The notes beneath the pieces were generated by a model that worked only from the letters and a program-made list of their open reading frames with translations, had not been told where the DNA came from and did not search any database. 64,000 nt of DNA from Candidatus Bipolaricaulota bacterium. GTDB taxonomy: Bacteria > Bipolaricaulota > Bipolaricaulia > RBG-16-55-9. The stretch lies in NCBI GenBank assembly GCA_026982655.1, contig JALSGO010000083.1:30-64029 (forward strand), given 5' to 3'. Below, piece by piece: positions 48,785 to 64,000 of the stretch; the stretch's first letter is position 1, and every line of letters starts with the position of its first letter. The position numbers were made by a program, and so were the translations under genes.

Positions 48785-49270
48785 GTGCCAATGCCTAAGA
48801 AGACGAACAAGGATCGGAAGGTCAAGCAGCAGCGTCTACTCCGGCAGGGGGCGGCCGGGGGCTGGCGGCCCTGGGCCTTTGGGGCCGTCACCCTCGGGGT
48901 GCTAACAGCCGCGTTTGGGCTGCTCTTGCCGAAGTTCTTCGCCGACGGTCCCGCAGCGGACGGGGAGGCCAACGTCATCCTGGTCGAAGCGGACATGGCC
49001 GGGCTCTATCCCAAGGAGATCCGGGTCAAGGCCGGGGAGCCCGTGACCATCCGCCTGCGCAGCTTGGACAACCGGTTCCACCTGGACGGGGGAGGCAAGC
49101 ACCAGTTCGCCATCGACGAGCTGGGGGTCAACATCATCGCTCCGCCGCTCGGCACGGCCGAGGCCACCTTCATCCCTACGGAACCGGGTGAATACGAGTT
49201 CTACTGCGACATCTGCTGCGGCGGGCGGGCCAACCCGACCATGGTAGGGAGGCTGATCGTCGAGCTATGA
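48785..49270 (+). CDS. Membrane-anchored cupredoxin_1-like copper-binding protein (paralog 2)
   Basis: ...HLDGGGKHQFAIDELGV...EYEFYCDICCGGRANPTMVGRLIV, same architecture as the protein at 42768. Confidence 0.6.
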   Translation: MPMPKKTNKDRKVKQQRLLRQGAAGGWRPWAFGAVTLGVLTAAFGLLLPKFFADGPAADGEANVILVEADMAGLYPKEIRVKAGEPVTIRLRSLDNRFHLDGGGKHQFAIDELGVNIIAPPLGTAEATFIPTEPGEYEFYCDICCGGRANPTMVGRLIVEL

Positions 49271-50109
49271 GCGCTCTGACCCAGATCTCCGCGCGCAAGG
49301 TGGTGCTGGCCTCGGCGATCGCCCTGGGGGTGATCGCCGCCGCGGTCTTCTTGGGGCTGCGGCACCCCTCCGCCCAGGCCGTCCCGATGAGCCCGCTCCT
49401 CCCGGCGGTGACGCTGGGGACCATCGTGGTGGCCGGGATCGTCGACGGGATCAACCCCTGTGCCTTCACGGTGCTCCTACTGTTCGTTACTGCCCTGCTC
49501 GCGAGCCTGCAAACCCGCAGCGACGTCGGGATCGCCGAGAACGTGGGGGCCACGCGCGCCCGGATCGTGGGGCTCGGCTCCATCTACATCGCAGCCATCT
49601 TCCTCACCTACCTGGCGCTGGGGGCGGGGCTCTTGGTGACGGCAGATCTCTTCGTGCGGGAGCACCTGCCCGCCCGGATCGGGGCGCTGCTCGCCATCTT
49701 CCTCGGGCTGTGGATGCTCAAGGACTACTTCCTGCCCGGGTGGGGCTGGCGGCTGGGGGCCCCCAAGGTCGTGGGGGAGTGGGCCCGGCGCGCGGCCCGG
49801 AAGATGACCGTCCCGGCGCTGGCGCTCGGGGGCTTTCTCATCGGGCTCTGCACCGTGCCCTGCAGCGGGGCGGTCTACCTGGCGGTGCTGGCGCTCCTCT
49901 CGACCCAGCCGACCGCGACGGCCTTCGGGTACCTGGTGCTCTACAACCTGATGTTCATCCTCCCGTTGGTCGGGGTGCTGGCCGTGGCCGCGTCGCGCCC
50001 GGCGCTGAACCGCTTGGCCCGCTGGAACCTCCACCACCGGGAGGGGGTCCGGCTGGCCTTGGGGTCGGGTGTCGTGCTCATGGGGCTGTTCATCCTGTAC
50101 ACCGTCTAG
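49267..50109 (+). CDS. CcdA/DsbD-family transmembrane thiol-disulfide protein (cytochrome c-type biogenesis CcdA-like)
   Basis: ATGA overlap with the upstream gene; DGINPCAFTVLLLFV (TM1 Cys) and LCTVPCSGAVYL (TM4 Cys), six TM. Confidence 0.6.
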   Translation: MSALTQISARKVVLASAIALGVIAAAVFLGLRHPSAQAVPMSPLLPAVTLGTIVVAGIVDGINPCAFTVLLLFVTALLASLQTRSDVGIAENVGATRARIVGLGSIYIAAIFLTYLALGAGLLVTADLFVREHLPARIGALLAIFLGLWMLKDYFLPGWGWRLGAPKVVGEWARRAARKMTVPALALGGFLIGLCTVPCSGAVYLAVLALLSTQPTATAFGYLVLYNLMFILPLVGVLAVAASRPALNRLARWNLHHREGVRLALGSGVVLMGLFILYTV

Positions 50110-50159: not shown

Positions 50160-50480
50160 GTGAACAACCATCATGCGGGAGGCGGCAAGCCCTGCCACGT
50201 CGAGCGGCTGGAGAAAGAGGTGGACATGGAGGCGCTGCGCTCCACCCGGGTCAGCATCCTGGCGGTGACGGGGATGGGGTGTCCCAACTGTGCCCTGCGG
50301 GTGCACAACGCGCTCCTCGCCCTCCCCGGCGTCCATCGGGTGGACGTGGAGCTGGAGGCCGAGCGGGCGATCGTCTACTGGGACCCGACCGCCCTGCAGC
50401 CGGAGAGGCTGATCGAGGCGGTCTCCCAGGCTGCGGCGGGGACCCCTCACGACTACCGGGCGTACTTCGTGAAGCCGTAG
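50160..50480 (+). CDS. copZ: Heavy-metal-associated (HMA) domain copper chaperone, CopZ-like, with a His-rich N-terminal tail
   Basis: GTG start after AGGAGAAAGGAGG; NNHHAGGGKPCH tail; VTGMGCPNCALRV (MxCxxC). Confidence 0.7.
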   Translation: MNNHHAGGGKPCHVERLEKEVDMEALRSTRVSILAVTGMGCPNCALRVHNALLALPGVHRVDVELEAERAIVYWDPTALQPERLIEAVSQAAAGTPHDYRAYFVKP

Positions 50481-50642: not shown

Positions 50643-51173
50643 ATGGACCTTAGGCTCATCGCCGTTGCGATCGTCTCCTTGGCGCTGGGGTTCCTCTTGG
50701 CCTCCGGCCTGCGCCCGGAGGTCGGGGTGGGGCCTTCGGAGGCGGAGCGGATCTTGGAGCGGCTGCGGCGCGAGATCATCCCGGAGGAGGGCAGCCCCAC
50801 GGGCTACGGGATCGCCTTCAGCGAGGCGGGCTACCAGACCCTGGTGGCCAAGAACCGCACACTCAGCGTCCCGCCCGAGCGGGCGGACGACTTCGAGGGC
50901 CTGGACATGAGCCTGCCCTGCTGTCCCTTCCAGAGCCCGAGCGTCGACGAGGCGAAGAACTGCCCGTGCGAGCACCATCAGGCGCTCTACGGGCTGGCCA
51001 AGTGGCTCCTCCAAGAAGACTATCCCGCAGACCGGGTCCAGGAGGAGGTGGCGCGCTGGAGCCGCTACCTCTTCCCCAAGGAGGCGCTGCGGGCGGAGAT
51101 GGAGCGGCGGGCGAAGCTCGATCCCGCCGTCGAAGCCGCCCTGGAGGAGCTCAAGGCCAAGGGGAAGTGCTAG
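50643..51173 (+). CDS. Membrane-anchored protein with Cys/His metal-binding-like motifs (LPCCPF, NCPCEHH, C-terminal Cys)
   Basis: N-terminal TM; motifs reminiscent of the CopG/DUF411 or PCYCGC families, but assignment is uncertain. Confidence 0.4.
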   Translation: MDLRLIAVAIVSLALGFLLASGLRPEVGVGPSEAERILERLRREIIPEEGSPTGYGIAFSEAGYQTLVAKNRTLSVPPERADDFEGLDMSLPCCPFQSPSVDEAKNCPCEHHQALYGLAKWLLQEDYPADRVQEEVARWSRYLFPKEALRAEMERRAKLDPAVEAALEELKAKGKC

Positions 51174-52616: not shown

Positions 52617-52627
52617 GGGTGAAGCGA

Positions 52628-55573
52628 ATGGCCCGAGGGCCGGACTTCCTGATACGTTGGCGCGTGCCGCTGCTGGTCGCCGTCCTGGTGGCCACCGCGC
52701 TCTTGGGCGCGGCGGTCATGGGAGCCAAGCTCAACGCCGACTTCTCCACGTATCTTTCCCAAGACAGCCCGCTCGTCCGGGAGTTCAACCGCGTCGGCGA
52801 GGTCTTCAAGGCCAACTACGTCGGCATGGTCCTCGTCCGGACCGAGGATCTGTTCACCCCCGAGAACCTCAGGCTGCTGGATCGCCTGACCCGAGCGTAT
52901 AAGTCCATCGAGGGCGTCGACTCGGTGACCAGCCTCACCAACGCCGTCGACTTCCGGCGGGCCGACGGCGGCCTGGTTGTGGGAAAACTCCTCGAGGGCA
53001 AGCCCCTCCCGACGGCGCCCGAGGAGCTGGAGAGGTTCAAGCGCTACGTGCTCTCCAAGGAGATGTACGTCGGCGCGTTGGTCAACGCCAAGGGCACCAC
53101 CGCCGTGATCCTGGTGCGCCTGCTTCCCAAGGTGAATCACTTCAAGGTCGCCGGGCAGATCGACCAAGTCACCCAGGAGATCGCGCCCAATGCAGAAAAC
53201 ATCTACTACGGCGGGATGCCCTTCCTCATCTACTCCATGACCGGGCTCATCCTCGACAACCTCTTCTTCCTGGTGCCGCTGATCATCCTGTTGCTCGTGG
53301 GGGTGCTGGAGCTGGGTTTCCGCCGCCTGGGCGGGGTGCTCGCCCCCCTGACCGTGGTGCTGCTCGCCGTGGTCTGGACGATGGGGATCCTGGCGCTCCT
53401 GGGCCGCCCGATCGACCTTCTGACCGGGATCGTCCCCATCATCCTCATCGCGATGGGCTCGGCGGACGGGATCCACTTCATGCGGCGCTTCTACGAGGCG
53501 CGGGCCGCCGGAGCCGAGCGCCGCGAGGCCGTGAAAATCACAATGAGGGAGATGGGCACGCCGATCGTCTTTACGTCCATCACGACCATGATCGGGTTCG
53601 CCTCGCTGGCCATCTCGAACTTCGACATCATCCGGACGTTCGGCTGGGCCACCGCGCTGGGGATCTTCCTGGCGCTGGTCGTCACCCTGATCGTGCTCCC
53701 CGCCGGACTGTCCTTTGGCCGGGAGCGGGCCTCCGTGCCTGCCGAGACGGACAACAGCGGGAGGCCGCGCAGCGTCCGGGGAGGGAGCCGGGCGATGGCC
53801 GCCCTGGGCGGGGGGATCCACCGGCGTCCGGGCGCGATCGCGCTCCTGACGGTGGGGGTGATCGCGCTGGCCGCGGTGGGGATCCCCCGCATCGTGGTGA
53901 ACGTGGACTGGTCGCTCTGTCTGGCACGGGGCAGCAAGCCGTACTTGGCGGAGATGCTGCTGCGCCGGGAGTTCGGCGGCTCCCTGCCCCTGCTCGTGTC
54001 CGTGAAGGGCGACGTCAAGGACCCGGCGACGCTGGAGACGATGCGGGCCGTGGAGCGCCACCTCGACGCGCTGCCCGAGGTGAGCGAGGCCGAGTCGATA
54101 GCGTCGGTGCTGGCGGAGATGAACTGGACGCTCAACGGGCGCTTCGCCGTGCCCACCGAGCGGGCTCAAGTCAACAACTTGTGGTTCCTGCTCCAGGGAC
54201 AAGACGTGCTCGATCAGATGGTCCGCTCGGACAACCAAGAGGCGCTGGTGCAGGCGAAGGTGGCCTCGCTGGGCACGGCGGTGATCAGCCGGGTGGTCGA
54301 GGACGTGAACGCCTTCTTGAGCCGCCTGCCCCAGAAGTTGGTCGTCGTGGACGCCGCCCAAGCGCCCCCGGATGCTCAACAGGCGCTGAGGGAACTCCAA
54401 GCTCAGCAAGTGAAAGAGGCTCTGGCTCAAGACCTGCGGGCCAAAGGCCTTTCGGTTGAACCCGCGGCGCTCGAAGCTGTTGTTGAGGCAGCGCAGAGCT
54501 GGACCCCCGGCGAACCCGACTACGCGGCGCTCGGCGAAGCCATTGAGAAATATTTGCTGAGCCCCGAGTCCGAGGTGCCGTTCGACGACCCTGCACAGGC
54601 CGCGACGATAGCCGAGTCGATCACCACAGCGCTCAGCGAGCGAGGCGGACGGCCATTGAGTGTCTCTGAGTTAGAAGCGTTGCTGCGCCCCCAGGTCGAG
54701 ACGTCCTACCCCGAGGACGTGGCCTGGCTGGCAGAGGCGTTAGTTTATCGCGTCGATGAGTTTTTAGATGCCCGTCGCGTGGAGGCGGCTTACGCGCAGC
54801 TGGCCGCCCAGCTGCCCCCGGAGGCGCGCTCCAACACGGATCTTGCGAAGAAGCTGCGCGGCGACCTTTGGGGGCTGACGACTGCGACGCTGGCGCTCGG
54901 TCCCCAGCAGTACGAGTCCCTGCAGGCCCAATATGGTCTGGACCTCGCGCGGACGGTGACCCTGGCCGCCGAGCCCTCGGGCCTAGCCCCGGTGCTGGAT
55001 CAGATGGAGAAGGAGCTGCTCCCCACCCAGATCGAGAGCACGGCGCTGGCCTTGTTGGCCGTGACGCTCTTGCTGATTTTGGTGTTCCGCTCGCTGCGGG
55101 CGGGGCTTTTGGGGATCGTCCCCGTGGGCCTGACCATTCTGGTCAATTTCGCAGTGTTAGGCTACTTCGGCATCGGCCTGGACTCGTTCACCGCGATGAT
55201 CGCCAGCATCACCATCGGCCTGGGGATCGACTACGCGATCCACTTCACCCACCGCTTCCGGAAGGAGTTCGAGCGCTCCGGCGACGAGCGGACGGCCCTC
55301 ATCACCACGTTGCAGACGACGGGCGTGGCGATCCTCATCAATTCGTTTTCGGTGGGCGCGGGGTTCGCCGTGCTGCTCTTGGCCGGCGGCCAGCACATCC
55401 GGCTCTTGGGAGGCCTTACGGCAATAGCGCTCCTGGTGAGCGCGCTCTTCACCCTGGTCGTGCTCCCGGCGCTCACGCTCTTGTGGAAGCCGCGCTACTT
55501 TCAGACCCCCGTCGTCGTGGAGCCGAAGCTGCGCCCTGAGCCCGAAGCCGAGAGGGGAGTTCAAAGCGCGTGA
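52628..55573 (+). CDS. RND-superfamily / MMPL-type exporter, paralog 2 (984 aa, enlarged periplasmic domain)
   Basis: Same N-terminal pattern and twin 6-TM bundles as paralog 1; ATG 52628 preferred over GTG 52619 (RBS AAGGGG). Confidence 0.8.
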   Translation: MARGPDFLIRWRVPLLVAVLVATALLGAAVMGAKLNADFSTYLSQDSPLVREFNRVGEVFKANYVGMVLVRTEDLFTPENLRLLDRLTRAYKSIEGVDSVTSLTNAVDFRRADGGLVVGKLLEGKPLPTAPEELERFKRYVLSKEMYVGALVNAKGTTAVILVRLLPKVNHFKVAGQIDQVTQEIAPNAENIYYGGMPFLIYSMTGLILDNLFFLVPLIILLLVGVLELGFRRLGGVLAPLTVVLLAVVWTMGILALLGRPIDLLTGIVPIILIAMGSADGIHFMRRFYEARAAGAERREAVKITMREMGTPIVFTSITTMIGFASLAISNFDIIRTFGWATALGIFLALVVTLIVLPAGLSFGRERASVPAETDNSGRPRSVRGGSRAMAALGGGIHRRPGAIALLTVGVIALAAVGIPRIVVNVDWSLCLARGSKPYLAEMLLRREFGGSLPLLVSVKGDVKDPATLETMRAVERHLDALPEVSEAESIASVLAEMNWTLNGRFAVPTERAQVNNLWFLLQGQDVLDQMVRSDNQEALVQAKVASLGTAVISRVVEDVNAFLSRLPQKLVVVDAAQAPPDAQQALRELQAQQVKEALAQDLRAKGLSVEPAALEAVVEAAQSWTPGEPDYAALGEAIEKYLLSPESEVPFDDPAQAATIAESITTALSERGGRPLSVSELEALLRPQVETSYPEDVAWLAEALVYRVDEFLDARRVEAAYAQLAAQLPPEARSNTDLAKKLRGDLWGLTTATLALGPQQYESLQAQYGLDLARTVTLAAEPSGLAPVLDQMEKELLPTQIESTALALLAVTLLLILVFRSLRAGLLGIVPVGLTILVNFAVLGYFGIGLDSFTAMIASITIGLGIDYAIHFTHRFRKEFERSGDERTALITTLQTTGVAILINSFSVGAGFAVLLLAGGQHIRLLGGLTAIALLVSALFTLVVLPALTLLWKPRYFQTPVVVEPKLRPEPEAERGVQSA

Positions 55574-55624
55574 GGAATTTCGTCGGGGAGAGAATATCCC
55601 GTACAATAACAGGAGGTTGTTCCC

Positions 55625-56407
55625 ATGAAGCGTAGTGGAAGTAGAACGAGAACGGTGATCCTCGGACTGACGGTGACGTTGCTCCTGGCGGTCGGCGCTT
55701 GGGCGATCACGGGCGACGAGGTGCTGCAGAGGTCTCAAGAGGCGATGCGGCCCGGCCAGGACGCGACGATCACGGAACGGATGACGATCGCCAAGCCCGA
55801 CGGCCAGACGGACGTGCTGGAGCTCAAGATGTACATGAAGGGGGAGAAGACGCTGATCCGCGTCCTCGCCCCGGAGGACTTCGCGGGCATTGGGCTGTTG
55901 ATCCTGCCCCAGGAGGACGGCGGCGAGGAGATCTGGCTCTATCTTCCGGCCTTCCGGGACGTGAAGCAGATCGTGGCCGAATCCTTGAGCGAGGGCTTCG
56001 TCGGCTCGGACTTCGCCTACGAAGATCTCACGGTGCGCTACACCTCCAAGTGGGACGTGACCTCCATGAGCGAGGAGGAAGGGCAATACGTCCTGACGCT
56101 GGCTCCCAAGCCCGAGGCCCAGCTCAGTTACAGCGGGGCGCGCATGTGGGTGGACCAGGAGACGTTCCTGCCCACGCGGGCGGAGTTCGACCGGGAGGGA
56201 GAGCTGCTCAAGGTGCTGACCCTCTCGGAAGTGCAGGACTTCCCCAGCGTCGCGGACCCCGAGACGAGCTACCCCACCCCGACGCGGATCGAGATGGCCA
56301 ACGTGAAGACGGGGAGCCGGACCCTCATCGAGCTTTTGGAGGTCGAGTACGACACCGGGCTCTCGGACGACTTCTTCACCGTACGCAACCTCAAGCGGGG
56401 CGAATAA
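55625..56407 (+). CDS. Outer-membrane lipoprotein-sorting (LolA-like) domain protein, partner of the preceding RND exporter
   Basis: Signal peptide; EEIWLYLPAFRDVKQI and GSDFAYEDL motifs shared with the paralog at 60626; possible TTCGTC-17-TACAAT promoter upstream. Confidence 0.65.
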   Translation: MKRSGSRTRTVILGLTVTLLLAVGAWAITGDEVLQRSQEAMRPGQDATITERMTIAKPDGQTDVLELKMYMKGEKTLIRVLAPEDFAGIGLLILPQEDGGEEIWLYLPAFRDVKQIVAESLSEGFVGSDFAYEDLTVRYTSKWDVTSMSEEEGQYVLTLAPKPEAQLSYSGARMWVDQETFLPTRAEFDREGELLKVLTLSEVQDFPSVADPETSYPTPTRIEMANVKTGSRTLIELLEVEYDTGLSDDFFTVRNLKRGE

Positions 56408-56460: not shown

Positions 56461-57798
56461 ATGGGAATGGCGCAAGCGACGGCGACGGCAGATCGCACGG
56501 AAGCCCAAGTGCGAGCGGTTTTAGACCGCCTGCTCGAGGCCATCCGCCCGAGGGAGTTCGCCGTGCGACTCTGGAACGGGGAGGTCATCGAGCCCGACCC
56601 CGGCCATCCGGCCCGCTTTACGCTCGTACTTAACCACCCGGGCGCGCTGGGGCGGATGCTCTGGCCGCCCTCGGACCTCACGATAGGAGAAGCCTACATC
56701 CGGGGGGACTTCGACGTCGAAGGAGATCTCATCGCCGCCTTCTCGCTGCGGGAGCACTTCACCCGCCCGCCGTTCCGCCTTACGGAGATGCTGCGCATGG
56801 TCCGCGTCCTGCGCCGAGCGGCCCGGACGGCCCCTCCCCTCCAGCCCGATCGAGGGCCCGCGCGCCTGCGCGGGGCGCGCCACTCCAAGGAGCGGGATCG
56901 GGCCGCCGTCCGCTACCACTACGACGTGGGCAACGACTTCTACGCCCTGTGGCTCGACCGCAACATGGTCTACTCCTGCGCGTATTTTGAGACGGGCACC
57001 GAAGATATTGACACAGCCCAGGAAGCCAAACTGGACTACATCTGCCGCAAGCTGCGCCTTCAGCCGGGAGAACGGCTGTTGGACATCGGCTGCGGCTGGG
57101 GCGGACTCCTGATGCACGCGGCCCAGCACTACGGCGTCGAGGCCGTCGGCATCACGCTAAGCCCCCCGCAAGCCGAATGGGCCCGGGAGCGCATCCGCGA
57201 GCGGGGGCTCGCCGACCGCTGCCGGGTGGAGGTCGCCGACTATCGCGACTTCGACGAGGGCCCCTTTGACAAGCTGGTGAGCGTCGGGATGTTCGAGCAC
57301 GTGGGCGCGAAGATGCTCCCCGTCTACTTCCAAAAGGCCTGGTCGCTGCTTAAGCCCGGCGGGGTTTTTCTCAATCATGGGATTACGCTGGGCCCGGGCC
57401 CGCGCGACGAGCCGAGCTGGTGGGGACGCACGCTCTTTAAGCAGGGGCTGTTCATCCAGCGATACGTCTTCCCCGACGGCGAGCTGGAGCCGATCCACGA
57501 GTCGCTCCAGGCCGCCGGTGAGGTGGGCTTTGAACTTAGGGATGTGGAGTCGCTGCGCGAGCACTACGCGCTCACCCTGCGCCGCTGGGTCCAGCGCCTG
57601 GAGGCCCGCCACGACGAGGCCGTCCGCGCCGCGGGCGAGGCCGTTTATCGCATCTGGCGACTGTTCATGGCCGGATCGGCGTATCACTTCGAGATCGGGA
57701 GGCTCAACGTCTACCAGGCGCTCTTCGTCAAGCCCGATCGCGGGCGGAGCGGTTTGCCTCTGACCCGAGCCGACTGGTATGCTCGCCCTAGTTCCTAG
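56461..57798 (+). CDS. cfa: Cyclopropane-fatty-acyl-phospholipid synthase family methyltransferase
   Basis: VGNDFYALWLDRNMVYSCAYF...LLDIGCGWGGL...SVGMFEHVG CFA-synthase signature. Confidence 0.85.
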   Translation: MGMAQATATADRTEAQVRAVLDRLLEAIRPREFAVRLWNGEVIEPDPGHPARFTLVLNHPGALGRMLWPPSDLTIGEAYIRGDFDVEGDLIAAFSLREHFTRPPFRLTEMLRMVRVLRRAARTAPPLQPDRGPARLRGARHSKERDRAAVRYHYDVGNDFYALWLDRNMVYSCAYFETGTEDIDTAQEAKLDYICRKLRLQPGERLLDIGCGWGGLLMHAAQHYGVEAVGITLSPPQAEWARERIRERGLADRCRVEVADYRDFDEGPFDKLVSVGMFEHVGAKMLPVYFQKAWSLLKPGGVFLNHGITLGPGPRDEPSWWGRTLFKQGLFIQRYVFPDGELEPIHESLQAAGEVGFELRDVESLREHYALTLRRWVQRLEARHDEAVRAAGEAVYRIWRLFMAGSAYHFEIGRLNVYQALFVKPDRGRSGLPLTRADWYARPSS

Positions 57799-57815: not shown

Positions 57816-58022
57816 ATGAACGAGTCGTTCACCGATCCCGTCTGCGGGATGACGATCGATAAGAGCCAAGTCGCCGCGACCCTCGAGTACGGAGGGAAAA
57901 CGTACTACTTCTGCTCCCCCGGCTGCAAGGTCGCCTTCGAGCGCGAGCCCGAGAGGTATGCCGAGTCGGAGTCCAAGCCGGAGTCCTCGGAGGGGAGCGC
58001 TCCCGGGTCGTCCTCTCCTTGA
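57816..58022 (+). CDS. YHS (TRASH-like) domain small protein
   Basis: DPVCGMTIDKSQ...YYFCSPGCKVAFEREPERY, same domain as the N-terminus of the second CopA. Confidence 0.75.
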   Translation: MNESFTDPVCGMTIDKSQVAATLEYGGKTYYFCSPGCKVAFEREPERYAESESKPESSEGSAPGSSSP

Positions 58023-58060
58023 AGTTCACCCCTTGGATAAACGAGGGAGCGCGAAAGCCT

Positions 58061-58106
58061 CCCGGACCGGCGGGGACCGAGGGACATCCCTCCCCGCCGG
58101 TCCGGG
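58061..58106 (+). other. Strong GC-rich stem-loop: 16-bp perfect inverted repeat CCCGGACCGGCGGGGA ... TCCCCGCCGGTCCGGG
   Basis: Read from sequence; lies between the YHS gene and RND paralog 3; no U-tract. Confidence 0.6.
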
Positions 58107-58188
58107 GCCGAGGACGGACCCCGCCCTCTCCACAAGATCTCCACAGCTCTTTCACCGGGACTTCACACCCCCTCCCTAAGGTGTCCTC

Positions 58189-60585
58189 ATGTCGACGCGA
58201 TCGCTCAAGGAGGAGAATCCCTCGATCATGTACAAGAAATACGTGGAATGGGTGCTGAACCGCCCCAAACTCGTGCTCGCGCTGATCGCGCTGGTGACCC
58301 TGGGGTTCGCCGCGGGGCTCCCGCGCATCCAGACGGACACCGACCCCGAGAACATGCTCCGTCCCGACGCCCCCATCCGCGTCTACAACGACCAGGTCAA
58401 AGCTTGGTTCGACCTCCAAGACGTGCTCGTCTTAGGGATCGTCAACGACCAAGACCCCAACGGGGTCTTGAACGCCCAAACGCTGGGGAAGATCTACCGC
58501 ATCACCCAAGAGATCCTCAAGATCGAGGGCGTCGTCCGCCGCAACGTCTGGAGTTTTCCGACGACCAACCACATCCGGGTGCGGGGAGGCACCCTCGTCC
58601 AAGAGCGTTTGCTCAAGACCGATCGGCCCACGGATGCCGACATCGCCGCGCTCGCCCAGGCCCTCGACGGAAACCCCCTCTTCGAGCGCATTCTCATCTC
58701 GGACGACCGCACGTTGGCCGCCCTCTACATCCCCGTGGAGGACGACGTGGACGCGAAACCCATCACGGATCGCATTCAGGAGATCGTCCAAGCCGAGGGC
58801 GGGCCGGAGGAGTATTACCTCGGCGGACAGCGCGTCGCCGAGGACGTCTTCGGGGTGCTGATGTTCCAACAGATGCTGCTGCTCTCGCCCTTGGTGGCCC
58901 TCGTCATCTGGGTGGGCTTGTGGCTCATGTTTCGAAGGCTGCGCTTTGCGTTTGTCTTCTCCCCCTTGTTGATCGCCTTGGTCTCGGTGATCTGGACGAT
59001 GGGGCTCATGATCTGGCTCGGGATCCCCGTCCACATCATGAGCTCCATGGCCCCCGTGTTTCTGATGAGCATCGGCGTGGTCGACGGGATCCACATCCTC
59101 AGTGAGTTCGTCGATCAGTACCCTAAGAGCCGCAACCGCCGCCGAGCGATCCTCGACACCCTGGTGGCCCTCAAGCGGCCCCTGCTCTACACCTCGCTGA
59201 CCACCGCCGTCGGCTTTGCGTCTTTGTACTTCACGGACATCCCGCCCGTTAGGGTCTTCGGGGTGTTCGTGGCCTTCGGGATCCTGGCCGCCTGGGTGCT
59301 TACGATCACCATGGTCCCGGCGATCGTGATGGTCCTGCGCGAGCAGGATGCCAAGGAGCTCGCTGCCAAGGAGAACCGCCTGGCCCGCGGGCTCCAAGCC
59401 CTGGGACGCTTCAGCATCCGGCGCCGCCGGGCCGTGCTCGTCGGGGGCCTCCTCGCTTTGGCCGTCGCGGGCTTCGGGCTGACTCAAATTCACATCGACG
59501 ACAGCCCCGTCTGGTGGTTCAAGAAGGGCCAGCCCATCCGCGAGGCCACCGCTTTATTGAACGAGAAGCTGGGAGGGACTTCGCTCCTGTATGTCGTGCT
59601 CGAGGGGGAGAAGGGCACGATGAAAGAACCCGAGGTGCTGCGGTACCTCGAGGAACTCCAGCGGTATCTGGAAGAATCCCCGTTGGTGGGCAAGACGACC
59701 TCGCTGGCCGACGTCGTCAAACGCATCAACGAGGCCTGGAACGACGACGATCCTCGGTATCGCGTGATCCCCGACTCCCGCAGGGCCGTAGCTCAGTTCC
59801 TGCTGCTGTACCTCTCCTCGGGGGACCCCAGCGATCTACAAGACTTCGTGACCCATGGCACGGGCTACGACAAGGCCAACGTCATCGTACAGGTGAAGAG
59901 CCCCGGTTCGGCGGCCATGGAGCGGGTCGTAGCACGGGCGCAAGCCTTCGTAGAGGGGAATCCGCCGCCCCGGGGGGTGCGGGTGAGCTTCGCCGGGCCG
60001 GGGTACTTCAATGCGAAGTGGAACGAGGAGATGTTCCGCGGGATGATGCGCGCCGTGGCCGGGGCCACCCTCGTCGTGTGGTTGCTGCTGTCGCTCAACT
60101 TCCGCTCGATGCGTTGGGGGATCGTGGGGCTGCTCCCCTTAGGGTTTACGATCGTGTTCACCTACGGGATGCTGGCTTTGCTGGGGGTGCCCTTCACCAT
60201 GCCCATCGAGGTGATCTCGGCCCTCTCGCTGGGGATGGCCGTGGACTTCGCCATCCACTTCGTCCAACGCTTCCGCGAGCGCTACGCCGAGACTCAAGAC
60301 GTAGAGGGCTCCTTGAGGTGGACCATGGGCGGGCCCGGCGTGGCCATTTTGCGCAACGCCGTCATCCTGTTTGTGGGCTTTACGGTGCTGATCTTCGCGC
60401 CGCTTACGCCGTATATCACCGTGGGGGTCTTTATCGCGATCATCATGGCCCTAAGCTCGCTGACCACGCTCTTCTTCTTGCCCGCGCTCATACGGCAGTT
60501 TGCCCCCTGGCTGGTGGACCGGCCCGCGCGGGCGGCCGTCCCCGCGGCCGCTGAAGTGGAAGCGGAAGTGGAACCGAAAGCCTAA
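58189..60585 (+). CDS. RND-superfamily / MMPL-type exporter, paralog 3
   Basis: 798 aa; same architecture (...LPRIQTDTDPENMLRPDAPIRVYNDQVKAWF...). Confidence 0.8.
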   Translation: MSTRSLKEENPSIMYKKYVEWVLNRPKLVLALIALVTLGFAAGLPRIQTDTDPENMLRPDAPIRVYNDQVKAWFDLQDVLVLGIVNDQDPNGVLNAQTLGKIYRITQEILKIEGVVRRNVWSFPTTNHIRVRGGTLVQERLLKTDRPTDADIAALAQALDGNPLFERILISDDRTLAALYIPVEDDVDAKPITDRIQEIVQAEGGPEEYYLGGQRVAEDVFGVLMFQQMLLLSPLVALVIWVGLWLMFRRLRFAFVFSPLLIALVSVIWTMGLMIWLGIPVHIMSSMAPVFLMSIGVVDGIHILSEFVDQYPKSRNRRRAILDTLVALKRPLLYTSLTTAVGFASLYFTDIPPVRVFGVFVAFGILAAWVLTITMVPAIVMVLREQDAKELAAKENRLARGLQALGRFSIRRRRAVLVGGLLALAVAGFGLTQIHIDDSPVWWFKKGQPIREATALLNEKLGGTSLLYVVLEGEKGTMKEPEVLRYLEELQRYLEESPLVGKTTSLADVVKRINEAWNDDDPRYRVIPDSRRAVAQFLLLYLSSGDPSDLQDFVTHGTGYDKANVIVQVKSPGSAAMERVVARAQAFVEGNPPPRGVRVSFAGPGYFNAKWNEEMFRGMMRAVAGATLVVWLLLSLNFRSMRWGIVGLLPLGFTIVFTYGMLALLGVPFTMPIEVISALSLGMAVDFAIHFVQRFRERYAETQDVEGSLRWTMGGPGVAILRNAVILFVGFTVLIFAPLTPYITVGVFIAIIMALSSLTTLFFLPALIRQFAPWLVDRPARAAVPAAAEVEAEVEPKA

Positions 60586-60625
60586 TGGAGAGATTTTACA
60601 GAACCCCATAGGAGGTTGACCGACC

Positions 60626-61486
60626 ATGAGGCAGAGCACAAGCAACAGACTCCTCACGACCGGACGGACGTTGGGGCTCCTGGCCCTGGGGCTGCTCCTC
60701 ACGCTGGGGGCCTTCCCCGTGGTCCTCACGCAGGCCCAAGCGCAAGGTCCCTCGGCGGAGGAGATCATGCAACAGGCGAAGGACCGCTGGCAGGGCGAGG
60801 ATTTCACGTCGGCCGTGCGGCTTACGACCGCGGAGCCCGGCGGCGGGGAGACCGTCCTCGACGTCGACTTCAAGGCCAAGCTCATCGAGGAGAGCCGGGA
60901 CTCGGGTGCGTTCCGCTACAAGGTGTTGGCCCGCGTCACGGCCCCGGAGGACGTAGCGGGCTGGGCGGTCCTCATCTGGGAGCAGGAGTTCCCCACCCCG
61001 GACGACATCTGGCTCTACCTGCCGGCGCTCGAGTCCACGAAGAAGATCTCGCTGGAGAACTTCCGTAACCCGCTCTTTGGAAGCGAGTTCGTGTTCGAGG
61101 ACGTCATCGGGCGCGAGCCGGGGCTCGACACCCACGAACTCCTGCGGGAGGAGACCCTCAACGTCGGCGGCGAGGACCGCCCCGTCTGGGTGATTAAGAG
61201 CACGCCTCAGGACCCCGATCTGGCGGGCTTCGCCTACCGCATCACCTACGTGGACCGGGAGACGCTCTTGGAGCTCCGCATGGAGCTCTACAACGACACC
61301 GACGCGTTGATCAAGCTCTACCAAGCCGAGGAGGTGCGAGAGCTGCAGGGCATCCCCACGTGGGTTACGGCGACGGCGGAGAACCTCGAGACGGGTCGAG
61401 TCACCACCTTCGAGTTCCTCGAGCCGGTCTACAACACGGGCGTTCCGGACGAGATCTTCGACCCGGAGCGGTTGGGGCAGCCGTAA
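60626..61486 (+). CDS. Outer-membrane lipoprotein-sorting (LolA-like) domain protein, partner of RND paralog 3
   Basis: Signal peptide; DDIWLYLPALESTKKI and GSEFVFEDV motifs paralogous to the protein at 55625. Confidence 0.65.
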   Translation: MRQSTSNRLLTTGRTLGLLALGLLLTLGAFPVVLTQAQAQGPSAEEIMQQAKDRWQGEDFTSAVRLTTAEPGGGETVLDVDFKAKLIEESRDSGAFRYKVLARVTAPEDVAGWAVLIWEQEFPTPDDIWLYLPALESTKKISLENFRNPLFGSEFVFEDVIGREPGLDTHELLREETLNVGGEDRPVWVIKSTPQDPDLAGFAYRITYVDRETLLELRMELYNDTDALIKLYQAEEVRELQGIPTWVTATAENLETGRVTTFEFLEPVYNTGVPDEIFDPERLGQP

Positions 61487-61502: not shown

Positions 61503-61543
<41 letters not shown>

Positions 61544-61681
61544 GATCCCCCTTGCGTTGGGATCTCCCCCTTGCTATCGTGAACCTATGTCGTTACGGAG
61601 GGAAACGTTCATCGCGCTGCGTCCGCAACCGGGGCGCACCGAGACCCTGAGGCACAACTCTGAGGAGGAGGGGATGAGCCC

Positions 61682-63124
61682 ATGAATGAGAAGACGTGGA
61701 TGATCGTGATGGTCGTGCTCGCGCTGGCCCTGGGACTGTGGTGGCTCTCCACACCGAAAGGCCCCCGGATGGAGATGGGGCAGAGAGCGGCCCCTGCGGC
61801 CGAGGAGGCCGTAGCCGGGGCTCAAGGGGGGCTGAACCGCCTGGCGTTCGTCGACCCGAGGACGGGCAGTCGGTTCACGGTCGAGGTCGGCCCGGCCACC
61901 CACGGCGTAGGCGTCCTGCCGGACGGCTCGAAGGCGTACGCCACCAGCTTCGGCGCCGACGAGATCTCCGTAGTCGATTTGGCCCAGAAGAAGACGGTCA
62001 AGACGATCTCCATCGGGGCCAAGTCCCACCATGTCGAGATCAGTCCCGACGGGCGTTGGGCCTACATCACCGCCGCGGACGACACCGTGGCCGTGATCGA
62101 CACCCGCACCGACACCCTGGCCGCGAAGATCGCCGTCCCGCCCGGCCCGATGTACGCCGTCTTCTCGCCCGACGGGCGCTTCGCGTACGTCACCAGCATG
62201 AAGGGCGGCGTGGTGAGCGTCCTCGACGTCGAAGCCCAGCAAGTCGTCCGGGAGATCCCCGTCGGGAAGGGGCCGGATCACGCGGCGCTCACCCCCGACG
62301 GGCGCTTCCTCTACGTCGCAAACCGCAACGACGGGACCGTGAGCGTCATTGACACCCAGCAGGGGAGCGTTATAGCGACGATCCCCGTGGGGAAGGGACC
62401 TCATGGGGTGGCCGTCGTCGAACGCGGTGGGAAACTGCTCGTCTTTGTGGGCAACCGCGGCGAGACGACGATCTCCATCATCGATCCCACGACGAACGCA
62501 GTCCTCGAGACGTTCGATCTGGGGGTAAGCCCCGAGCACCTCACGCCCTCCTTCGACCGCAAGACGCTCTACATCGGGAGCATCCCCGCGAAGCAGCTCT
62601 TCGTCTACGACGTCGAGCGCGGGGAGATCGTGCAGCGCTTCGACGTCGAAGGGGAGATCCACCAGATCGTCGTCGTGCCCCCACGCCAACAGGCCCGCAT
62701 GCCCATGCCGAGGATGCCCATGGAGCCTGAGCAAGAGAAGGGGAAAGAGATGGGCATGCCTATGGAAGTCGAGTACGAGCTCGTCGAGGTCGAGGGCGGC
62801 AGCTACCGAAATATCGACGCCCCCACCCTCTGGGCGATGCTCCAACAGAAGGACTTTCTGCTGATCAACGTCCACATCCCCTACGCGGGCGAGCTGCCCG
62901 AGACGGACTTGTTCATCCCCTTCAACGCCATTGAAGAAAACCTCGACAAGCTCCCGGAAGACAAGGACACGAAGATCGTGGTCTACTGCCGCAGCGGGCC
63001 GATGAGCGCGAAGGCCGCCGCGACGCTGGTGAAGCTGGGCTACACGAACGTCTGGAACTTAGAGCAGGGGATGCGCGAGTGGCAGGCGGCGGGGTTCCCA
63101 CTCTTGACGAACAAGGCGGAGTAG
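61682..63124 (+). CDS. Signal-anchored YVTN-family beta-propeller repeat protein fused to a Met-rich linker and a C-terminal rhodanese domain
   Basis: About seven repeats of the ...SPDG(R/K)xAYVxxxxxxxVSVID... type (YVTN/PQQ-like); MPMPRMPMEPEQEKGKEMGMPMEV linker; rhodanese-like C-terminus with active-site Cys (VVYCRSGPMSAKAA...NVWNLEQGMREW); GAGGAGGAGGGG RBS. Confidence 0.7.
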   Translation: MNEKTWMIVMVVLALALGLWWLSTPKGPRMEMGQRAAPAAEEAVAGAQGGLNRLAFVDPRTGSRFTVEVGPATHGVGVLPDGSKAYATSFGADEISVVDLAQKKTVKTISIGAKSHHVEISPDGRWAYITAADDTVAVIDTRTDTLAAKIAVPPGPMYAVFSPDGRFAYVTSMKGGVVSVLDVEAQQVVREIPVGKGPDHAALTPDGRFLYVANRNDGTVSVIDTQQGSVIATIPVGKGPHGVAVVERGGKLLVFVGNRGETTISIIDPTTNAVLETFDLGVSPEHLTPSFDRKTLYIGSIPAKQLFVYDVERGEIVQRFDVEGEIHQIVVVPPRQQARMPMPRMPMEPEQEKGKEMGMPMEVEYELVEVEGGSYRNIDAPTLWAMLQQKDFLLINVHIPYAGELPETDLFIPFNAIEENLDKLPEDKDTKIVVYCRSGPMSAKAAATLVKLGYTNVWNLEQGMREWQAAGFPLLTNKAE

Positions 63125-63131
63125 GTGCCCC

Positions 63132-63886
63132 ATGGTCTTAGACCCATCCGAGCCCAACCCGGCGCAAAAGGCGATGCCCTCGAAGGCCTTCCCCATAGAT
63201 CCGGAAGCGACGGGGGTCACGCGGGCGCGCTACGACCGCGTGGCCCCCGTCTATGACCTCTACGAAGGCCTGATGGAAGGGCTCTTCTTCCGCTCGTGGC
63301 GGCGGCTCGTCTGGGGCGCCGTCCAAGAGCACCTGGAGCACCTGCAGCAAATCGCAGCCGCCACGAGCGCAGCGAAGCCCCGCTTGCTGGAGGTCGGCGT
63401 GGGCACGGGCAAGAACCTGCCCTACTACCCCGGAGGCGTCGAAGCCCTAGCCATCGACCTCAGCGAGAAGATGCTGGAGCGCGCCCGGAAGCGGGCTCTC
63501 AAGCTGGGAAAGCCCGTAGATTTGCTCCCGATGGACGCCCAGGCCCTCGCCTTCCCCGACGAGTCCTTCGACGTCGTGGTGGCCACGTTCGTGTTCTGCT
63601 CTGTGCCCGATCCCGTCCTAGGGCTCCGCGAAGTCAACCGGGTATTGAAGCCCCACGGACAGGTGGTTTTGCTGGAGCACATGCGTCCGCGCTCCGAGCG
63701 CTTGGGGAAACTCTTCGATCTCTTCAATCCCCTCGCCGTGAGGCTGACCGGGGCGAACATCAACCGCCGTACGGTCGAAAACGTCCGCAAGGCGGGCCTC
63801 GAACTTGAGAGCGTAAGGGAGCTCTCGGCCCAAGGAATCGTAAAGCTTATCGTAGCCCGAAGGGGCTCACCCGAAGGAGGTCAGCC

Positions 63887-63890
<4 letters not shown>
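63132..63890 (+). CDS. Class I SAM-dependent methyltransferase (UbiE/COQ5-like)
   Basis: LEVGVGTGKNL (motif I), ...FDVVVATFVF..., ...LKPHGQVVLLEH. Confidence 0.85.

Positions 63891-64000
<110 letters not shown>

Follow-up and report, generated by a model that had tools for sequence, protein, structure and literature searches.

A membrane-anchored YVTN beta-propeller-rhodanese protein with seven invariant histidines, encoded in a copper island of a Bipolaricaulota bacterium

The 64,000-nt stretch analysed here (contig JALSGO010000083.1 of a Candidatus Bipolaricaulota bacterium; called the window) contains an open reading frame (ORF) for a 480-amino acid (aa) protein, in which a membrane anchor, a seven-bladed YVTN beta-propeller, a Met-rich linker and a rhodanese domain are joined in one chain. 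Seven propeller histidines, H74, H116, H117, H200, H241, H286 and H327, are invariant in the ortholog alignment, no further His is present in the propeller, and the gene lies among copper-homeostasis genes. Judged by their conservation, these histidines and not the Met-rich linker are the conserved functional core of the protein. An earlier note on this DNA, made from the sequence alone, had overlooked them and had taken the linker as a key element. We tentatively favour the view that the protein holds an extracytoplasmic multi-copper site in the propeller tunnel, which would be coupled to a tethered sulfurtransferase and would serve as a component of the copper-stress island; we place this somewhat below an even chance.

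The ORF of the propeller-rhodanese protein (61682..63124, forward strand) starts with ATG and has no start further upstream in frame. A strong Shine-Dalgarno sequence (GGAGGAGGGG) is located 8-10 nt 5′ of the start codon, and the N-terminus MNxK... is kept among the propeller-rhodanese orthologs. Scans for promoters (sigma-70) and terminators flanking the gene were uninformative. A protein identical to the product is present in public collections (P0001) without a name. An AlphaFold2 model of the 480-aa protein was built on 14 orthologs (mean predicted local distance difference test score, pLDDT, 86.3) and its strands were assigned by DSSP. In this model 28 strands make up seven blades of four strands each (residues 43-332), the ring is closed where strand 326-332 meets the N-terminal strands, and a compact alpha/beta domain is seen at residues 366-470. 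The N-terminus (MNEKTWMIVMVV...) has neither a twin-arginine (RR) motif nor a lipobox Cys, and the predicted export topology of its helix is that of a signal anchor or an uncleaved Sec signal.

In the NCBIfam scan the YVTN repeat model TIGR02276 reached 140.5 bits (cut-off 27.85) in 5 stretches. The Pfam scan of the propeller returned PF10282 Lactonase (70.7 bits), PF21783 (62.3 bits) and PD40 (E=8e-6), and Cytochrom_D1 and YNCE were also matched. With a model above its cut-off and the seven-bladed fold both in place, the propeller belongs to the YVTN repeat proteins. The best structure match by Foldseek was 1l0q (E 2e-26, target TM-score 0.70, 30% identity), which is also the nearest solved structure by sequence (245 bits). 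The order of anchor, roughly seven-bladed YVTN propeller, Met-rich linker and rhodanese that the earlier note had read from the letters is borne out by these scans, in which YVTN/PD40 and Rhodanese were both found, and by the model.

The rhodanese domain matched PF00581 with 50.6 bits (cut-off 22.2; residues 398-470) and with 53.8 bits when taken as an isolated domain, while PspE and GlpE models gave sub-threshold matches in the NCBIfam scan. Cys436 lies in VVYCRSGPMSA, and both the Cys and the loop CRSGPMS are invariant in the 14 orthologs; the active-site Cys is also kept in a distant clade and in an archaeal member of the family. By model score and active-site loop the domain is a catalytic sulfurtransferase-type rhodanese, as had been supposed. 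Like PspE, GlpE-type rhodaneses, Wolinella Sud and rhodanese lipoproteins of Chloroflexota, it comprises about 100 residues, is extracytoplasmic by prediction and has one Cys in a C-x-x-G-x-x-S loop. It differs from these single-domain exported rhodaneses in being fused to a propeller and in reading NVH and GELPETD for the usual DVR and GHIPGA. The stand-alone lipoproteins of Chloroflexota share 55-62% identity with the domain (L019; L051). In one of these metagenome-assembled genomes (MAGs), at L051:7136-10432, the exported rhodanese (NVHVPYAGE...VVYCRSGRMS) is encoded immediately downstream of haem-copper oxidase subunit genes. A stand-alone rhodanese is also present in the copper locus L090.

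The only other His of the protein is H398 in the rhodanese domain, which gives a total of eight His and one Cys. An alignment of 33 sequences (33-82% identity) has only 21 invariant columns, including all seven propeller His and Q328. According to DSSP on the AlphaFold2 model, every propeller His comes second or third in the innermost strand of its blade, which is also the first strand (73-78, 115-120, 198-203, 240-248, 286-289 and 326-332). The innermost strand lines the central tunnel, and the His are located at the end where the chain comes out of the D-A loop. Six blades supply His; blade 2 gives a His-His doublet, and blade 3 has an aromatic residue (Y/F158) instead. The resulting signature HHH[Y/F]HHHH is all-or-none, being complete in 33 of 120 homologs and represented by 0-4 His in the others.

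In 1l0q the residues at the seven positions are M/Q/L/K/S/A/Y. With no His among them, the propeller fold itself needs no His at these positions. This structure (1L0Q, an S-layer YVTN domain of Methanosarcina mazei) belongs to a PKD-fused structural surface protein. A WD40-style structural His tetrad was also considered as the reason for one His per blade. Generic YVTN propellers are free to vary at those positions, and the idea was therefore rejected.

The CuZ centre of nitrous-oxide reductase (NosZ) contains four Cu and seven conserved His ligands (PMC7558416). In the P. stutzeri NosZ sequence (PDB 3SBP) we confirmed His at positions 129, 130, 178, 326, 382, 433 and 494. The local motifs are CHH, IHG, NPHG, GPLH, QPGH and EPHD in NosZ and SHH, THG, GPHG, GPDH, SPEH and EIHQ in the window protein, and in both proteins the His occupy the same two positions of the repeat (P-H-G or P-x-H), with a single doublet and a single blade that lacks a His. 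NosZ carries its doublet in blade 1 and the window protein in blade 2, and the blade of NosZ that lacks one is blade 3 by a reading of its sequence. NosZ is periplasmic and seven-bladed like the window protein, and its CuZ contains inorganic sulfide, which brings a sulfur donor into the biology of NosZ. It also has a CuA domain in its chain, and CuA-like cupredoxins are encoded in the islands of the 7-His propeller. Alignment of the ortholog profile with the NosZ propeller by hhalign (E 0.05, probability 1%) put GPLH382 on GPDH200 and PGH433 on PEH286, a weak match that gives local register only.

A second known enzyme, thiocyanate dehydrogenase (TcDH), is a seven-bladed propeller with three Cu in the central tunnel (PMC9456337). 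It releases S(0), and its loci contain copper-transport genes and an adjacent gene for a putative S(0) acceptor (PMC9456337, PMC6504805). TcDH is exported by the Tat (twin-arginine translocation) system (PMC6504805). The TcDH chains (PDB 5F75, 6UWE) matched the window protein with 33 bits and E 2e-7 over about 95 residues, corresponding to three blades; no full-length similarity to TcDH was found, the match being short and blade-shifted. TcDH is a soluble protein of sulfur oxidisers and has no rhodanese fusion, whereas the window protein has no Tat signal.

Scores with family models keep the window protein apart from these enzymes. The NosZ models gave 19.5 bits against 625 (TIGR04246) and 103.7 bits against 700 (L-NosZ, NF052460), and Pfam nos_propeller was not matched at E<0.01. 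No CuA cupredoxin domain follows the propeller of the window protein, the rhodanese being there instead, and unlike NosZ it has a Sec-type transmembrane (TM) anchor and a copper-resistance rather than a denitrification context. Identity with clade III 'lactonase-type' NosZ was rejected as well: the proteins with YVTN and cupredoxin (P0061, P0069, P0087, P0098, P0112, P0116), the 7-His members and the distant clade all scored 74-136 bits against 700. Foldseek against the PDB returned about 2000 generic seven-bladed propellers, with NosZ at rank 13 (rmsd 14), and a fold search that returns generic propellers cannot discriminate function. From these comparisons, the window protein falls outside NosZ, TcDH and the zinc-binding propeller family AztD, and its resemblance to NosZ and TcDH is likely one of working principle.

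The two halves of the protein also match a pair of NCBIfam models, TIGR03866 (PQQ-dependent-catabolism-associated propeller; 137 bits) and TIGR03865 (CXXCW rhodanese-like; 27.4 bits). Both scores are below the cut-offs of 287.3 and 128, and here there is no PQQ dehydrogenase, ABC transporter or CXXCW motif. It is already recognised, as the names of these models show, that YVTN propellers and rhodanese-like proteins can be associated with one and the same system.

Our favoured reading can be put as follows. The propeller would be anchored outside the cytoplasm, and the His ring at the mouth of its central tunnel would bind several copper ions (3-4), since the same number and placement of His binds Cu in CuZ and in the tri-copper centre of TcDH. 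The rhodanese would carry a persulfide on Cys436, which the CcdA/DsbD-type conduit of the island may keep reduced. Being tethered, it could give sulfane sulfur or thiol-derived reducing equivalents to the tunnel copper, or take them from it. The outcome would be a sulfide-bridged copper cluster that keeps Cu harmless, or a turnover of copper/sulfur species. In proteins that have them, the disordered Met-rich tethers would be optional arms for catching Cu(I). The identity of the metal, the nuclearity, the sulfide bridge and the direction of sulfur transfer are what we infer here. A stronger version, in which the seven-His ring of the Sec-exported protein templates a CuZ-like copper-sulfide cluster with sulfur delivered in cis by the rhodanese persulfide and without NosDFY/NosL, appears distinctly doubtful to us.

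Several points weigh against a copper site coupled to sulfur chemistry. Propeller-only members of the family exist, and the rhodanese is not obligatory. The convergence of the seven imidazoles on a single site is deduced from the register of the strands rather than from model geometry, and the His could also be ligands of Zn, Ni or Fe or have another role. Where the linker is only 6-10 residues long, the rhodanese branches off where strand A of blade 7 ends, probably on the side of the propeller away from the His ring, and this geometry may put Cys436 15-20 Å or more from the ring. The similarity to NosZ (hhalign E 0.05) and to TcDH (33 bits, three blades) is weak, and, the blades being repeats, it is ambiguous which blade corresponds to which. 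Finally, neither cluster-assembly genes of the nosDFYL type nor nosR were found among the genes scanned (window 40-64 kb, L001-L006 and L087-L090).

In public databases 14 full-length propeller-rhodanese orthologs (50-82% identity) were found, and a distant propeller-rhodanese clade contributes 9 further cluster representatives with 30-39% identity. The species representatives of GTDB were scanned by pattern and 80 loci were kept. Five of these match both propeller and rhodanese, the nearest being from a Candidatus Bipolaricaulota MAG (78% identity). The seven-His signature is found in only two of the 80 loci, L007 and L008, and probably in a third, L009. The latter (L009:112-1551) is from a MAG of a Methanosarcinales archaeon and encodes a propeller-rhodanese protein with 32% identity and a lipoprotein-like N-terminus; with this probable seven-His member the family appears to cross the boundary between bacteria and archaea. 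The fusion, which the earlier note had called unusual, is not unique, since the orthologs, the distant clade and the archaeal member are already in the databases, all of them without a name or called only 'YVTN family beta-propeller protein'. A profile search of 1.84 billion representatives (50% clustering) was dominated by giant multi-propeller YVTN proteins and gave at least 6 single-stretch full-length members in the best 150, so that the family size is a lower bound. As delimited by sequence, the 7-His YVTN propeller family is small and discrete, with a handful of 50%-identity clusters. The window protein has all features that define it: the seven His together with [Y/F]158 and Q328, an N-terminal TM helix and a propeller of about 290 residues. 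No NCBIfam equivalog cut-off was reached by any 7-His member tested.

The C-terminal partner of the 7-His propeller varies. It can be lacking (about 325 aa in total; P0015, P0017-P0019 and P0060), or it is a rhodanese, a CxxC thioredoxin-like domain (P0016, with DPNCIWCH; Thioredoxin_2 E 0.11) or an unclassified domain of about 130 aa, which in some members is followed by a Cys/His-rich tail, PCCAFKNP...NCACEHH...KAKGKC. By their motifs, the named fusion partners (rhodanese, CxxC thioredoxin-like, PCC/CxCEHH) are all Cys-based modules. A 176-aa Cys/His-rich protein encoded in the window is tied to the propeller, because a homologous tail is fused to sister 7-His propellers elsewhere; the two are probably functional partners. 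Neither this protein nor the C-terminal domains of the sister proteins matched any Pfam or NCBIfam family. Literature searches for YVTN with rhodanese and copper, or for YVTN with copper resistance, gave nothing relevant. The seven-His signature, the restriction to copper islands and the repeated fusion to Cys modules are undescribed in the curated models or the literature searched; the fusion and its domains are already known.

The gene is part of a copper island (Table 1). Three co-directional genes for a YHS protein, an HAE3/MMPL transporter and a LolA-like protein (57816..61486, forward strand) are located upstream, and the pair of MMPL and LolA-like genes recurs in L002, L005 and L087. 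The upstream 20 kb, with this YHS gene, also contain genes for a CopA-type ATPase (YHS and 2 HMA domains), a cupredoxin and an HMA protein; two cytochrome b genes and the gene of the CcdA/DsbD-like protein are likewise located upstream in the window. In the motif of the window cupredoxin (YCDICCGGRANPTM) the second CuA His is replaced by Ala, and one extra Cys is present. The earlier note had named a methyltransferase and an (EH)n protein as neighbours. The methyltransferase gene is there (63132-63890), and it also adjoins the propeller gene in L001 and L002, the closest loci, while L007 has a gene-sized gap at this place. The (EH)n stretch is present too, but it is not a separate protein: it belongs, as the His-rich N-terminal part, to a CopB-type P-type ATPase. 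In L001, an independent and longer assembly of the locus, this ATPase is complete (L001:6362-8596; 744 aa; ITCPH, DKTGT and GDGVNDAP motifs; no precomputed Pfam hit). The gene order there is YHS, HAE3/MMPL, LolA-like, propeller gene, methyltransferase, CopB-type ATPase and multicopper oxidase, with a second P-type ATPase and an ArsR-type regulator further on.

Copper-homeostasis genes were present in 11 of the 13 related loci examined, in agreement with the copper-island location that had been proposed. L002 contains DUF411/CopG, thioredoxin, P-type ATPase, ArsR-type regulator and DsbA genes, and in L003/L004 a YHS gene is immediately upstream of the propeller gene. HMA, YHS, Rieske, CsoR, CopA, cupredoxin and DsbD genes are found in L005/L006, and the same gene set as in L005 accompanies the propeller-only member of L087. 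A member fused to the CxxC domain has MerR, CopA and HMA genes nearby (L088), a sister member CopA, cupredoxin, DOMON and DsbD_2 genes (L089), and a protein of the distant clade rhodanese, cupredoxin, CopA, CsoR and YHS genes and two multicopper oxidase genes (L090). A simple motif scan detected copper-gene motifs in L007 and L010 and none in L008 and L009. The association with copper homeostasis is conserved across the 7-His family and beyond it.

Two further observations concern the neighbours of sister genes. Directly upstream of the 7-His propeller gene in L005 and L087 lies a gene (L005:9230-9886, L087:7210-7860) for a TM-anchored protein of 218 aa in which the CuA motif (H-x35-C-x3-C-x3-H-x2-M) is complete. 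Among family models this protein best matches the CuA domains of L-NosZ and CoxB, it has an acidic, His-rich insert, and it occurs in one lineage only. Together with the propeller gene, this gene resembles the two halves of NosZ on separate polypeptides. Downstream of the sister propeller gene in L089 (L089:9708-14600) lies a set of molybdopterin oxidoreductase, 4Fe-4S and NrfD genes, followed by DsbD_2, thioredoxin and methyltransferase genes. The domain make-up of this set presumably recalls polysulfide or thiosulfate reductases.

Table 1. Features of the propeller-rhodanese gene and its surroundings in the window
Feature	Position	Strand	Evidence or remark
Whole ORF: TM anchor, 7-His YVTN propeller, Met-rich linker, rhodanese	61682..63124	+	domain scans, AlphaFold2
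N-terminal hydrophobic helix, residues 3-23	61688..61750	+	AlphaFold2 helix; sequence MNEKTWMIVMVVLALALGLWWLS
Disordered tether after the helix, residues 24-42, with small Met motif PRMEMG	61751..61807	+	pLDDT <50 at residues 24-39
Seven-bladed YVTN beta-propeller, residues 43-333	61808..62680	+	28 strands, pLDDT mostly >90; Foldseek; TIGR02276
His74 codon, blade 1, second residue of innermost strand	61901..61903	+	invariant in 33 members; strand 73-78
His116-His117 codons, blade 2 doublet	62027..62032	+	invariant; strand 115-120
His200 codon, blade 4, after nearly invariant Asp199	62279..62281	+	strand 198-203; aligned with NosZ His382 in weak hhalign match
His241 codon, blade 5	62402..62404	+	invariant in 33-member alignment; AlphaFold2 strand
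His286 codon, blade 6	62537..62539	+	invariant; aligned with NosZ His433 in weak hhalign match
His327-Gln328 codons, blade 7, both invariant	62660..62665	+	33-member alignment; AlphaFold2 strand
Met-rich interdomain linker, residues 334-364, PRQQARMPMPRMPMEPEQEKGKEMGMPMEVE, with MxM and MxxM motifs	62681..62773	+	composition; pLDDT
Single-domain rhodanese, residues 365-476, active-site loop C436-R-S-G-P-M-S	62774..63109	+	PF00581
Cys436 codon, only Cys of the protein	62987..62989	+	ortholog alignment
SAM-dependent methyltransferase, 8 nt downstream	63132..63890	+	domain scan
Start of CopB-type P1B ATPase, (EH)n N-terminus, cut by window end	63887..64000	+	longer assembly L001
LolA-like protein	60626..61486	+	domain scan
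HAE3/MMPL RND transporter	58189..60585	+	domain scan
YHS protein	57816..58022	+	domain scan
TM-anchored 176-aa Cys/His-rich protein, PCCPF...NCPCEHH...KAKGKC	50643..51173	+	60% identity over 154 residues, E 1e-69, to P0025 residues 458-611
84-aa HMA protein, GMGCPNC	50226-50480		in row of three small genes starting 48785
CcdA/DsbD-like membrane protein, NPC and VPC motifs	49267..50109	+	domain/motif scan
CuA-like cupredoxin	48785..49270	+	sub-threshold best matches are CuA domains of NosZ and CoxB

The protein could also be a metallochaperone or copper buffer of the AztD type, without sulfur chemistry. The tunnel-mouth His would then reversibly bind Cu and hand it to CopB, the multicopper oxidase or the MMPL/LolA-like exporter, and the rhodanese Cys would only relay Cu(I) as a thiolate or, as a thiol, reduce Cu(II). 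AztD (PDB 6CMK) is a periplasmic propeller metallochaperone encoded in a metal-homeostasis operon; it binds zinc and has no rhodanese domain. The window protein matched it weakly (NF038015, E 2e-7; 6cmk, E 1e-4), and its 30 bits with NF038015 are far under the cut-off of 400, so that it is not a member of this family. The propeller-only 7-His members, the adjacent efflux pumps and multicopper oxidase, and the Met-rich tethers, which suit Cu(I) capture, are all consistent with such a role. However, seven invariant His exceed the need of a single exchangeable site, and the invariant canonical sulfurtransferase loop argues that normal rhodanese chemistry is retained. We consider a chaperone or buffer of this kind unlikely, though it deserves to be kept in mind.

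We regard it as rather improbable that the protein is a catabolic enzyme working like TcDH, in which tunnel copper would oxidise thiocyanate, thiosulfate, sulfide or a thiol and the fused rhodanese would accept the zero-valent sulfur. The copper genes would then provide the cofactor and not resistance. The three-Cu propeller of TcDH with its S(0) release, copper-transport genes and adjacent putative acceptor, as well as the match to the TcDH chains, speak for it; the cupredoxin, Rieske, cytochrome b and DOMON genes of the islands could carry electrons, and the CuA-motif cupredoxin is encoded directly upstream in L005 and L087. The loci nevertheless resemble detoxification islands (CsoR/MerR/ArsR repressors, CopA and CopB, CopZ-like HMA, multicopper oxidase) and not loci of energy metabolism. 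Besides the missing Tat signal and the restriction of the match to three blades, no c-type cytochrome partner is adjacent, and the CuA-type neighbour is confined to its one lineage.

The propeller of MSMEG_5308 is a scaffold for MmpL3. A corresponding role without metal, in which the propeller would be a protein-protein scaffold for MMPL/LolA-like export and the His would be structural or pH-sensing, could be read from the MMPL and LolA-like genes immediately upstream and in L002, L005 and L087, and from the 42 bits of a weak match to NF048007, the family of MmpL3/TtfA stabilisers. Yet this score is far below the cut-off of 600 bits, the stretches examined around L003/L004, L088 and L090 contain no MMPL genes, and generic YVTN propellers do without His at the seven positions. 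A scaffold therefore strikes us as very unlikely.

The Met-rich linker, on which the earlier note had built its mechanism, contains 7 Met in 31 residues (334-364), compared to 2.2% Met in the remaining protein (binomial P = 4e-6). Residues 336-360 have pLDDT values below 50 in the AlphaFold2 model, and the linker is predicted to be disordered. A Met-rich version, with a different sequence each time, is carried only by the six closest orthologs (>=70% identity); in the other 8 of 14 the linker has 6-10 residues with 0-1 Met. Since only the six closest orthologs have it, the linker is not a conserved functional element. The earlier note had named absence from orthologs, or disorder, as what would speak against its view, and on this count that part of its interpretation fails. 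Its resemblance to CopC, PcoC and CusF stands as far as the composition with MxM and MxxM motifs is concerned. Beyond that it fails: the linker is disordered by prediction, the 480-aa protein has no CopC-, PcoC- or CusF-type match in Pfam or NCBIfam, and with no family match the likeness is compositional only.

Met-rich segments also recur at other places. The tether after the TM helix contains Met only in P0001-P0006, the six proteins that also have the Met-rich linker (e.g., PDMMMGMG in P0003), and the distant propeller-rhodanese clade has an M/D/G-rich insert in the B-C loop of blade 1, as has the archaeal member (SEMMMEPGHDDGNQMDMKMK). In L005 and L087, a secreted protein encoded directly downstream of the propeller gene (L005:11431-12120, L087:9087-9944) has a coiled-coil-like N-terminal half and a Met/His/Gln-rich tail, e.g., MSMPLGMMEGMGMNMPSSMQGM. 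In these genomes with a separate Met/His/Gln-rich protein, the propeller protein is without Met-rich linkers. By their distribution and motifs, the Met-rich Cu(I)-type segments look like a movable, Cu(I)-catching accessory. A mechanism in which the linker is a CopC/PcoC/CusF-like Cu(I) site coupled to the rhodanese and the propeller a mere scaffold could call on the strong local enrichment and spacing of Met and on its recurrence in relatives, but it is highly improbable, with the linker missing from most orthologs, unconserved in the rest, predicted to be disordered and unlike any CopC or CusF family, and with the invariant histidines left unexplained.

A few features of the surrounding DNA were also noted. 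Between the LolA-like gene and the propeller gene the window has a run of 43 G (61503-61545), and the independent assembly of the same locus reads G9-A-G7 at this site (L001:4001-4017). The run is either an artefact of assembly or sequencing or a hypervariable homopolymer. A perfect 12-nt inverted repeat (GGGGGAGATCCC / GGGATCTCCCCC) with a 9-nt spacer is located at 61538-61570, 112 nt 5′ of the start codon, and overlaps with a direct repeat of 16 nt (GGGAGATCCCCCTTGC / GGGATCTCCCCCTTGC). It is not followed by a T-run and, from its sequence, could serve as an operator or form a hairpin in the transcript. The island contains two pairs of HAE3/MMPL RND and LolA-like (TP_0789-like) genes (52619-56407 and 58189-61486), which are separated by a cyclopropane-fatty-acid-synthase-like gene (56461-57798) and the YHS gene.

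To our knowledge, multi-copper centres in the central tunnel of a propeller occur in only two enzyme families, NosZ and TcDH, and the source of the sulfide in CuZ is, as far as we know, still unsettled. We know only of indirect physiological evidence for a link between copper detoxification and sulfane sulfur, and the reviews on bacterial copper homeostasis found in our literature search do not mention propeller proteins at all. The proteins described here form an uncharacterised family with the seven-His count and placement of NosZ, which is found in copper-resistance islands of uncultured Bipolaricaulota-like bacteria and has one member in Methanosarcinales. If the histidines bind copper, the family would represent a third kind of propeller copper centre, and it would link copper detoxification directly to sulfane-sulfur chemistry. 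Should the doubtful CuZ-like cluster prove true, Cu-S cluster assembly would be self-contained, and the cell could lock excess periplasmic copper as a protein-bound sulfide cluster; alternatively, together with the CuA-like cupredoxins of the island, such a centre could carry out redox catalysis on N2O, SCN-, thiosulfate or Cu(I).

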